From: Escherichia coli
Lineage (GTDB): Bacteria; Pseudomonadota; Gammaproteobacteria; Enterobacterales; Enterobacteriaceae
Assembly (NCBI RefSeq): GCF_045037415.1
Contig: NZ_CP173438.1
DNA: 64,000 nt
Direction: 5' to 3' (one strand)
Made by a program: the position numbers and the translations under genes
Shown here: one piece after another, positions 59,037 to 62,063 of the stretch
How the letters are laid out: every line of letters begins with the position of its first letter
Position numbering within the stretch: position 1 is the first letter of the stretch
The notes under the pieces: model-generated
Seen by the model: only the letters and a program-made list of their open reading frames with translations
What the model was told of the DNA's origin: nothing
Databases searched by the model: none

Positions 59037-60908
59037 TTATCTACGCATGAATGCGTATTCTGATTGTGGTTGTGCGACGTAATGCCCCGGCCCGACGCAT
59101 TGCAACGAGACGGCTGCAACCTCTTCGCCACGCAGATGAATATTGCTGGGAAGATCGTCCGACAGCAGTACACGCTGCGGTCGTTGTCGGGACGGTTCAG
59201 CGACCGGAACTGCCGCCAGTAATTTACGCGTATAAGGATGCTGCGGATTTTCAAAGACCGCGCGCCGTGGACCAATTTCAACAATTTGCCCGAGATACAT
59301 CACCGCCACACGATGACTAATCCGCTCAACCACGGCCATATCGTGGGAGATAAACAGATACGCAATGCCGAAATCACGCTGGAGATCGAGCAACAAGTTG
59401 ATAATCTGCCCGCGAATAGAAACATCCAGCGCCGAGACGGCTTCGTCGGCAATGATCACTTTTGGATTCAATGCCAACGCGCGAGCAATGCAGATGCGCT
59501 GGCGCTGACCGCCGGAAAACTCATGTGGGTAACGCCAGGCATGTTCCGGTAACAGGCCCACGCGCTCCAGCAACCACGCAACGCGTGCAGCCGCTTCTTT
59601 ACCTGGCAATAAACCGTGTACGCGCAGCGGTTCGAGAATCGAATCACCGATAGTCTGACGTGGGTCCAGCGAAGCGTAAGGGTCCTGAAAAATAAACTGA
59701 ATATCGCGGCGCAATGCCTGAAGTTTACCGGGTGACAAGGTATCGATTCGCTGACCGTTAAAGATAATTTCGCCGCCCTGCGATTCGACCAGGCGCAACA
59801 ACGCCCGCCCGGTAGTGGATTTACCGCTGCCAGACTCGCCCACCAGCGATAGCGTTTCGCCAGGCCAGAGATCAAAACTGACTTTCTCAACGGCATGCAC
59901 TTCCCGCGTTACGCGATTCAACAAACCGCTGCGCAAAGGGAAACGGGTGACCAGATTACGCACCCGTAAAACAGGTTCGCCATCCACCACCGTTTTCTGC
60001 TCGATGGATGACTCCTGTTTCGCTGGATGTTCAAGCGATATCAATGGGAAACGTCGGGGATAATCTAACCCTTTCATCGCACCAAGTTGCGGAACAGCAG
60101 CTAACAGCGCACGGGTATAAGGATGTTGCGGTGCATGAAAAATCTGTTCGACGCTACCCGTTTCCACCGCCTCGCCCTGATACATCACCAGTACCCGATC
60201 GGCAATCTCTGCCACCACACCCATATCGTGAGTGATAAAGATAACGCCCATCGACATCTCTTTTTGCAATACTTTGATTAATTGCAGGATCTGCGCCTGA
60301 ATAGTGACATCCAGCGCGGTGGTTGGCTCATCGGCAATCAGCACCGCCGGGCGGCATGACAGCGCCATCGCAATCATCACTCGCTGGCGCATCCCGCCAG
60401 AGAGTTGATGCGGATAACGTGAAAGAATGGTTTGTGCCTCCGGAATGCGTACCTGATCCAGCATCCGCTTCGCCTCGACCATCGCTTCTTCACGACTGGC
60501 GTTCTGATGCAGACGAATAGATTCAGCAATCTGTTCACCCACAGTAAATACCGGGTTCAGCGATGTCATCGGCTCCTGAAATATCATCGCCATATCCGCA
60601 CCGCGCACATGGCGCATTTGTGCAGCGCTCTGCTCGCTAAGTTCAATTACTTCGCGACTGCGCCGCTGCAACAGCATTTTATCGCACTGCACTAAACCGC
60701 CCGCCTGTTCCAACAGGCGCATCAATGCCAGCGCAGTCACTGACTTACCGGAGCCGGATTCGCCAACAATTGCCAGCGTCTCACCACGTTGCAGGCTAAA
60801 AGAGAGATTGCGGACCGCAGCTATTTTCTGCTGCTCCTGCATAAAGGCAATATTCAGATTTTCAACCGCCAGCACATCACCGGCATCAAGTTCATCACTG
60901 TGTGGCAA
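59037..60908 (-). CDS. gsiA: Glutathione ABC transporter ATP-binding protein GsiA (two ABC domains), 623 aa
   Basis: ORF 59037..61016; known N-terminus (M)PHSDELDAG corresponds to a TTG at 60906-60908 preceded by aaggggac; two Walker A motifs GESGSGKS; overlaps the iaaA 3' end. Confidence 0.82.
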
Positions 60909-61860
60909 CGGTGTCCCCTTTTTCACGGTAGATACCGGTGGTTGGCGTATCGCCTGCGTAGCCCCAGGCGCGATACATTCCTTCGGTGTTAAACGGTAGC
61001 GCGACATTCCCTTCATGGTCGATAGCGATTAAGCCACCGCTACCGCCAAGCGCAGGGAGTTTTTCCATTACTACCCGCTCGCAGGCTTCCGCGAGACTTA
61101 ATCCGCCGTAATCCATTAACGCGGCGATATCATATGCCGCCAGCGCGCGGATGAAGACTTCGCCCGTACCGGTACAGGAAACCGCCACACTGGCGTTATT
61201 GGCATAGCATCCGGCCCCCACTAAGGGACTATCGCCAACTCGTCCGGGTAATTTATTGGTCATTCCGCCCGTGGACGTGGCTGCCGCCAGATTGCCGTCT
61301 AAATCCAACGCCACGGCCCCTACGGTGCCCATTTTCTGTTTTTCATCCAGTGGCGCACCGCTATGGTCGAGGACTGTTGCCCCTTCCTCGCGCGCTGCCA
61401 TTAGTTGTTCATAACGCAAAGGTGTGGAGAAAATCTCCGGCGAGACGCGCTCCATGCCATGAGCAAACGCAAAATTTTCTGCCCCTTCGCCAATCATCAT
61501 CACATGCGGGCTTTGCTCCATCACCAGCCGGGCGGCAAGAACCGGATTACGCAGATGACTAACGCCCGCCACCGCACCGGCTTTCAGGGTGTTACCATCC
61601 ATCAGACAGGCGTCCAGTTCATGGGTTTCATCACGCGTAAAGACAGCGCCAATTCCGGCGTTAAACAGTGGACACTCTTCCAGCAGACGCACCGCTTCCG
61701 TCACCACATCCAGCGCACTTTCGCCCGCTACCAGCATTTTCTGCCCGGTTTCAACAATGGCAGACAACGCCTCGATGTAGCGTAATTCCTGTTGCAGACT
61801 CATCTGCGCGCGGCTAATTGCACCTGCGCCACCATGAATTGCAATGACTGCTTTGCCCAT
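60895..61860 (-). CDS. iaaA: Isoaspartyl dipeptidase / L-asparaginase family protein IaaA
   Basis: 321-aa ORF; Ntn-hydrolase with nucleophile-Thr motif region GTVGAVALD. Confidence 0.9.
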
Positions 61861-62063
61861 AGTATTCGTCCATTAAGAGTGGCTCGCCACTTTTGCTATA
61901 AATATCAGAATTTTTATGAATGACTCATTCAATTTTTGAATATAGAAAGATGGATATGGCATGTAAAGGCAGGAGCCAGCGCTACGCCCGAGGTGGCATA
62001 CAGTCTGTGGCGTTTTTCTGACATAATAGGCAAATTCGATTTTGCCTCCGCAGGAGTGTTTTC

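Follow-up and report, generated by a model that had tools for sequence, protein, structure and literature searches.

Translational coupling in bacterial operons takes place by termination and reinitiation or by ribosome-mediated unfolding, and trpE-trpD and the coat and replicase genes of phage MS2 are described examples of coupled gene pairs. In this paper we analyse the junction between iaaA, which encodes an isoaspartyl peptidase, and gsiA, which encodes the ATPase of the glutathione importer, in a stretch of 64,000 nt of Escherichia coli DNA (contig NZ_CP173438.1, assembly GCF_045037415.1), which we call the window. Our main result is that gsiA very probably begins at a TTG codon 14 nt within the 3' end of iaaA. 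This start is already known, from the current annotation and from a published re-mapping of start sites. The closest described counterpart is gsiA of E. coli K-12 (yliA, b0829, ECK0819; 623 aa in U00096.3 and RefSeq), which has the same TTG, the same Shine-Dalgarno (SD) sequence and the same 14 nt overlap. The window belongs to a different E. coli lineage from K-12 and is identical to it in the junction sequence; the two GsiA proteins differ by a few substitutions, for example D11 in the window for N11, none of them relevant to the start.

Like the genes of the described coupled pairs, iaaA and gsiA lie on the same strand, the SD sequence of the downstream gene is inside the coding sequence (CDS) of the upstream gene, no promoter-like or terminator-like signal is found at the junction, and the start codon falls within the footprint of a ribosome standing at the stop codon. 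They differ from these pairs in that the overlap is 14 nt and not the commoner 1 or 4 nt, that no conserved occluding structure was found, and that a dependence of gsiA translation on that of iaaA is only putative.

The start codon of gsiA

The 3' end of iaaA reads GAA AAA GGG GAC ACC GTT GCC ACA CAG TGA, and the same bases in the +1 frame read AAA AAG GGG ACA CCG TTG CCA CAC AGT GAT GAA CTT, which is the frame of gsiA. An earlier sequence-only reading of the window had placed the gsiA start 14 nt inside the end of iaaA, and its range of 60895-60908 is exact; the iaaA stop codon begins 11 nt downstream of the TTG. The same reading was right that the residues PHSDELDAG (CCA CAC AGT GAT GAA CTT GAT GCC GGT) directly follow the TTG at 60908-60906, and that a sequence resembling a ribosome binding site, AAGGGGAC, lies upstream of it at 60920-60913. 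The GGGG of this motif is at 60918-60915, with a spacer of 6 nt to the TTG. The first base of the TTG is also the second base of the IaaA Val318 codon GTT, so that swaps of the gsiA start codon alter IaaA and are not silent.

RefSeq starts gsiA at this TTG in three E. coli records, SK1144, K-12 NEB 5-alpha and 6EVA, and in all three the gsiA start is at locus position 1793, the iaaA end at 1806 and the CDS has 1872 nt. SK1144 is 100% identical to the window across the 601 bases compared and has iaaA annotated at the matching position. Of the 5426 complete E. coli genomes, 5425 contain this 601 nt junction. A shorter stretch of 36 nt centred on the TTG, which includes the SD sequence, the TTG and the stop codon, matches 5353 of the 5426 genomes, and no match to a version with ATG, GTG or CTG exists among them. 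The public protein models give a similar picture, as the exact 623 aa protein starting at the TTG is present in at least 1000 public contigs, the exact 612 aa protein starting at a GTG at Val12 in 3 contigs and the exact 659 aa protein starting at the ATG at 61016 in 2 contigs.

Two side observations were made in these searches. Five of the junction matches are on plasmid-typed records, and one genome has two copies. The record NZ_CM172609.1 (L084, locus 432-860) has a gene at the gsiA position with the same TTG and a length of only 1533 nt; it carries a generic ABC-domain protein name, and gsiA is truncated there.

For the comparison across species we scanned one genome per species, resulting in 80 loci (L004-L083). 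The alignment was anchored on the first conserved beta-strand, VLAVxNLNIAF, and the codon 11 positions upstream of it is homologous to the TTG of the window. The N-terminus could be aligned in 26 other species, and all of them have a start codon at this place (11 GTG, 9 ATG and 6 TTG). TTG is found in Escherichia, E. albertii, Citrobacter, Superficieibacter and Pseudocitrobacter, GTG in Enterobacter, Lelliottia, Phytobacter, Pluralibacter gergoviae and Siccibacter, and ATG in Leclercia, Cedecea, Rahnella, Serratia oryzae and others. A variable first base next to nearly invariant second and third bases is the signature of a start codon. The orthologous junctions of Enterobacter, Leclercia, Lelliottia and Cedecea have the start at the same position, followed by the same residues (M-P-H-S-[DE]-E-L), and the SD sequence in the same place, but unlike the window they mostly use GTG or ATG. 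An AAGGGG or AAGGAG motif is kept at the SD position across the Enterobacteriaceae.

The longest open reading frame (ORF) opens with the ATG at 61016, and the ORF list starts the gsiA frame there. As the sequence-only reading had stated, this start would add 36 residues (659 aa instead of 623 aa), which would come from the +1 frame of iaaA. Two public contigs carry the longer model (ANK06194.1 and EGI16927.1). However, the counterpart of this ATG is not a start codon in E. albertii (ACC), Leclercia (GCG) or Superficieibacter (GGG), and in 12 of the 26 species an in-frame stop lies 3-13 codons ahead of the conserved start, so that a longer GsiA is impossible there. The extension shows no similarity beyond the iaaA overlap. 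That the ATG persists could be because the overlapping His-Glu codons of IaaA (cAT Gaa) are constrained. We consider a start at this ATG close to refuted, with next to no probability left to it.

We also compared the predicted duplex with the 3' end of the 16S rRNA (anti-SD) for every in-frame NTG codon in the region from the upstream stop to the first conserved beta-strand, five in all (Table 1). Only the TTG at 60908 has a good predicted duplex, and the one at the ATG of 61016 is weak. The AAGGGG motif, its 6 nt spacer and the interchangeable start codons among the orthologues are those expected of SD-led initiation at UUG. The sequence-only reading had called this a non-canonical start. It is correct that the codon is TTG, but the term is overstated, as TTG, though a minor start codon, is a standard one in bacteria and is already annotated here.

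The experimental evidence comes from Nakahigashi et al. 2016 (PMC4909307), who mapped initiating ribosomes in K-12 with tetracycline-inhibited ribosome profiling (TetRP); we took their figures for K-12 from the published table. In row 8 of their Table S2, ECK0819 yliA is assigned a new start, a TTG at 866743, which lies 33 nt upstream of the 2006 start. At this TTG the three samples gave signals of 46.3, 140.5 and 70.6, and at the 2006 start they gave 0, 0 and 2.98. The new site has zero difference from the 2014 annotation in U00096.3, where the gsiA start is at position 867520, and yliA is among the genes where TetRP agrees with the re-annotation from 2006 to 2014. According to the same paper, earlier annotation contained no more than 81 UUG starts (PMC4909307). 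The preference of the sequence-only reading for the TTG over the ATG at 61016 is supported by RefSeq in three genomes, by the published TetRP data and by the comparison of 26 species. A Salmonella start-site paper (PMC5576327) contains neither gsiA nor yliA in its supplements.

The 2006 start is the GTG at Val12, and a further question is whether GsiA could begin there, mainly or additionally, as a protein of 612 aa. This was the gene model of U00096.2 and it survives in the 3 contigs mentioned above, for example as BAI54293.1. The GGTGAT just upstream of the GTG looks like the 3' portion of an extended SD sequence, and some genes have dual starts according to the TetRP authors (PMC4909307). 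These points are outweighed by the near absence of TetRP signal at this GTG, by a duplex energy of only -3.0 kcal/mol, and by the codon itself, in place of which a divergent E. coli (L004), Citrobacter FP75 and an Enterobacter metagenome-assembled genome have GTA or GTT. Moreover, PHS[DE]EL is conserved upstream of Val12, and where iaaA ends before the gsiA start there is no overlapping gene to explain this conservation. A start at Val12 is thus very unlikely.

There are several points that count against the TTG start or against its experimental support. The TetRP screen was restricted to in-frame NTG codons at most 60 nt from the 2006 start (PMC4909307), so that the ATG at 61016, 108 nt upstream of the TTG, was never scored and is excluded by comparison alone. 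The authors caution that peaks within upstream coding regions may be ambiguous (PMC4909307), and the TTG is inside translated iaaA, where a ribosome that terminates on iaaA has its P-site 8 nt away. The 'confirmation' entry for yliA is '6. nt', for which the main text gives no definition, and the 'N'-peptide found' column is empty for this gene (PMC4909307). The data are also from another strain, K-12, though with an identical junction sequence.

With the iaaA stop so close downstream of the TTG, and with the ambiguity that the TetRP authors flag for starts located in upstream genes, the published peak could be explained by ribosomes pausing at the end of iaaA instead of initiating on gsiA, and the experimental support would then be spurious. 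But in three samples the peak was attributed to an in-frame NTG (PMC4909307), and annotation and comparison independently indicate the same TTG even if the peak is due to pausing. We regard pausing as an improbable explanation of the peak and retain the TTG as the start of gsiA.

The GsiA protein fits an Opp/Dpp-type ABC ATPase, with two ABC_tran domains (E = 8.1e-64, two stretches) and an oligo_HPY domain C-terminal to each of them (E = 1.9e-19, two stretches). Its nearest solved relatives are Mycobacterium tuberculosis Rv1281c (OppD) and DppD. There is no solved structure for GsiA itself, and these relatives are uninformative on its native N-terminus.

Table 1. Positions in the window of the genes, candidate starts and predicted signals around the iaaA/gsiA junction; energies are for the predicted duplex with the anti-SD.
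Feature	Position	Strand	Anti-SD duplex (kcal/mol)	Basis
iaaA CDS, isoaspartyl/beta-aspartyl peptidase, 321 aa	60895..61860	-		ORF list, Pfam, RefSeq
iaaA stop codon TGA	60897-60895	-		sequence
gsiA CDS from TTG, 623 aa, ABC ATPase with two fused nucleotide-binding domains	59037..60908	-		RefSeq, Pfam
gsiA start codon TTG (60908)	60906..60908	-	-7.8, best of five	sequence, TetRP in K-12, comparison
SD-like AAGGGGAC within the iaaA CDS	60913..60920	-		anti-SD duplex, conservation
iaaA/gsiA overlap, 14 nt, first base of TTG to last base of TGA	60895..60908	-		
Rejected start, in-frame ATG of the longest ORF, 659 aa (ATG 61016)	61014..61016	-	-1.5	
Candidate start ATG	61007		-4.8	
Candidate start GTG	60926		-3.0	
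Rejected start, GTG at Val12, 2006 K-12 annotation, 612 aa (GTG 60875)	60873..60875	-	-3.0	
Predicted RNA hairpin enclosing SD and TTG	60864..60950	-		minimum free energy -44.2 kcal/mol, z = -3.2
Promoter-like, sigma-70-like site (TTTACA, 17 nt, TATATT), candidate operon promoter	61939..61967	-		consensus 10/12

Origin of the overlap and conservation of the gene order

The overlap of 14 nt is not a general property of this gene pair. In most Enterobacteriaceae, among them Enterobacter, Leclercia and Lelliottia, iaaA ends at a TAA inside the SD sequence (GAA TAA GGGGG), whereas Escherichia and Citrobacter have AAA (Lys314) in place of this TAA and iaaA runs for eight more codons, which encode KGDTVATQ. 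This comparison was made between positions 60895-60921 of the window (minus strand) and the loci L008, L010, L012-L017 and L021. A single difference between TAA and AAA has thus created the overlap. Among the sampled species only Escherichia and Citrobacter have this geometry; in other Enterobacteriaceae iaaA ends 9-13 nt before the gsiA start or overlaps it by 1-4 nt. The Asparaginase_2 domain (Ntn-hydrolase) of IaaA covers residues 5-310 of 321 (E = 5.7e-116), and therefore the overlap encodes a tail of IaaA outside the domain.

In 71 of the 80 species loci (2.5 kb flank) gsiA is preceded on its own strand by an iaaA homologue, which is directly adjacent in most of them and about 300 nt away in Budvicia. 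The synteny reaches the Burkholderiales (Bordetella, Achromobacter, Paraburkholderia and Variovorax) and the alpha-proteobacterium Methylobacterium. This is a deep synteny of an Ntn-hydrolase with a glutathione importer, for which the annotation suggests no obvious functional reason.

Possible coupling of gsiA to iaaA translation

The sequence-only reading also took the overlap to imply translational coupling of the peptidase with the importer. On our preferred reading gsiA is the second gene of the iaaA-gsiABCD transcription unit, and its translation very probably starts at the UUG 60908-60906, guided by the AAGGGG SD sequence within the last iaaA codons, to yield a GsiA of 623 aa with fMet-Pro-His-Ser-Asp-Glu-Leu-Asp at the N-terminus. 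As the start lies 11 nt upstream of the iaaA stop, ribosomes on iaaA would cross the gsiA initiation region and terminate beside it. Part of the GsiA synthesis may then be coupled to iaaA translation, either because terminating ribosomes re-initiate or because ribosomes open up local structure, and the weak UUG would hold the ATPase output low.

Coupling is plausible because of the overlap and because the iaaA stop and the gsiA start are close to each other throughout the sampled species. The distance between them was determined in the 23 of the 26 species with a near-full-length iaaA match upstream, with the iaaA stops located by an in-frame scan, and in none of the 23 loci is the stop more than 19 nt ahead of, or more than 14 nt past, the first base of the gsiA start. 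Overall, we see about an even chance that iaaA and gsiA are coupled in a functionally meaningful way.

An operon of iaaA and the gsi genes is stated in PMC10355420, although this statement is a secondary one, and full-text literature searches on ybiK/CysB found nothing on the operon. Our consensus scan found no promoter-like and no minus-strand terminator-like site at or adjoining the junction, which is weak evidence. Minus-strand terminator-like sites are present only well within iaaA (61660-61647 and 61195-61183), at least about 290 nt upstream of the TTG. The candidate operon promoter is situated about 80 nt upstream of the iaaA ATG and is a consensus match only, in a scan where the number of sites is not above that in shuffles. 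On the plus strand we observed a terminator-like hairpin with a T-run at 60896-60913, antisense to the junction; the T-run simply mirrors, on the opposite strand, the A-run of the SD region, and the count of such sites is likewise not above shuffles.

Alternatively, gsiA may start at the TTG by independent, SD-driven initiation, with the overlap as a by-product of the stop codon loss and without a role in coupling. Several observations favour this and speak against coupling or are at least neutral to it: the overlap is recent and lineage-specific, an SD duplex of -7.8 kcal/mol could support independent initiation, the eight extra IaaA codons are outside the Asparaginase_2 domain and no occluding structure is conserved. 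Also, E. coli 6EVA has an internal stop in iaaA, 172 nt before the TTG, and its gsiA is nevertheless intact. On the other side, the iaaA stop is within about 20 nt of the gsiA start in every geometry (23/23), an arrangement that generally permits coupling, the weak UUG would gain from ribosomes delivered by iaaA, and the E. coli sequences are predicted to form a hairpin around the start region (z -2.4 to -3.2). Independent initiation is a serious possibility to our mind, if somewhat short of an even one. Strain 6EVA (L003, NZ_CP138428.1), in which iaaA is annotated as a pseudogene (locus 841-1806), provides a natural test of whether gsiA needs iaaA translation.

The predicted hairpin encloses both the SD sequence and the TTG and has a core stem of 10 bp, in which 60940-60931 would pair with 60887-60878. 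It is also predicted in K-12 (z = -2.4). Outside E. coli it is absent or not significant, with z = -0.1 in E. albertii and with different folds in Citrobacter, Enterobacter, Leclercia and others (z -1.9 to +1.0), and its 3' arm is not conserved. We therefore rejected a conserved occluding RNA structure at the gsiA start, as the hairpin is strong in E. coli only. By these fold predictions, the structure that could impose a dependence on iaaA translation is not conserved outside E. coli, which is a further point against coupling. A narrower form of coupling, in which the loss of the ancestral TAA to AAA in Escherichia, which would have shifted iaaA termination to 11 nt past the gsiA UUG, together with the E. 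coli-specific hairpin makes GsiA synthesis depend on iaaA translation, seems unlikely.

The significance of the start site is mostly one of annotation hygiene. The 612 aa and 659 aa models persist publicly beside the 623 aa model. Taking the longest ORF makes gsiA 36 codons too long, and the 2006 K-12 model started 11 codons too late. We suggest that expression constructs, translational fusions and the quantification of GsiA peptides use the 623 aa model from the TTG. The coupling of iaaA and gsiA is a small question about stoichiometry in a sulfur-scavenging operon and not a long-standing problem. If GsiA synthesis did depend on iaaA translation in E. coli, the ratio of importer ATPase to peptidase would be fixed at translation, and not by independent initiation.

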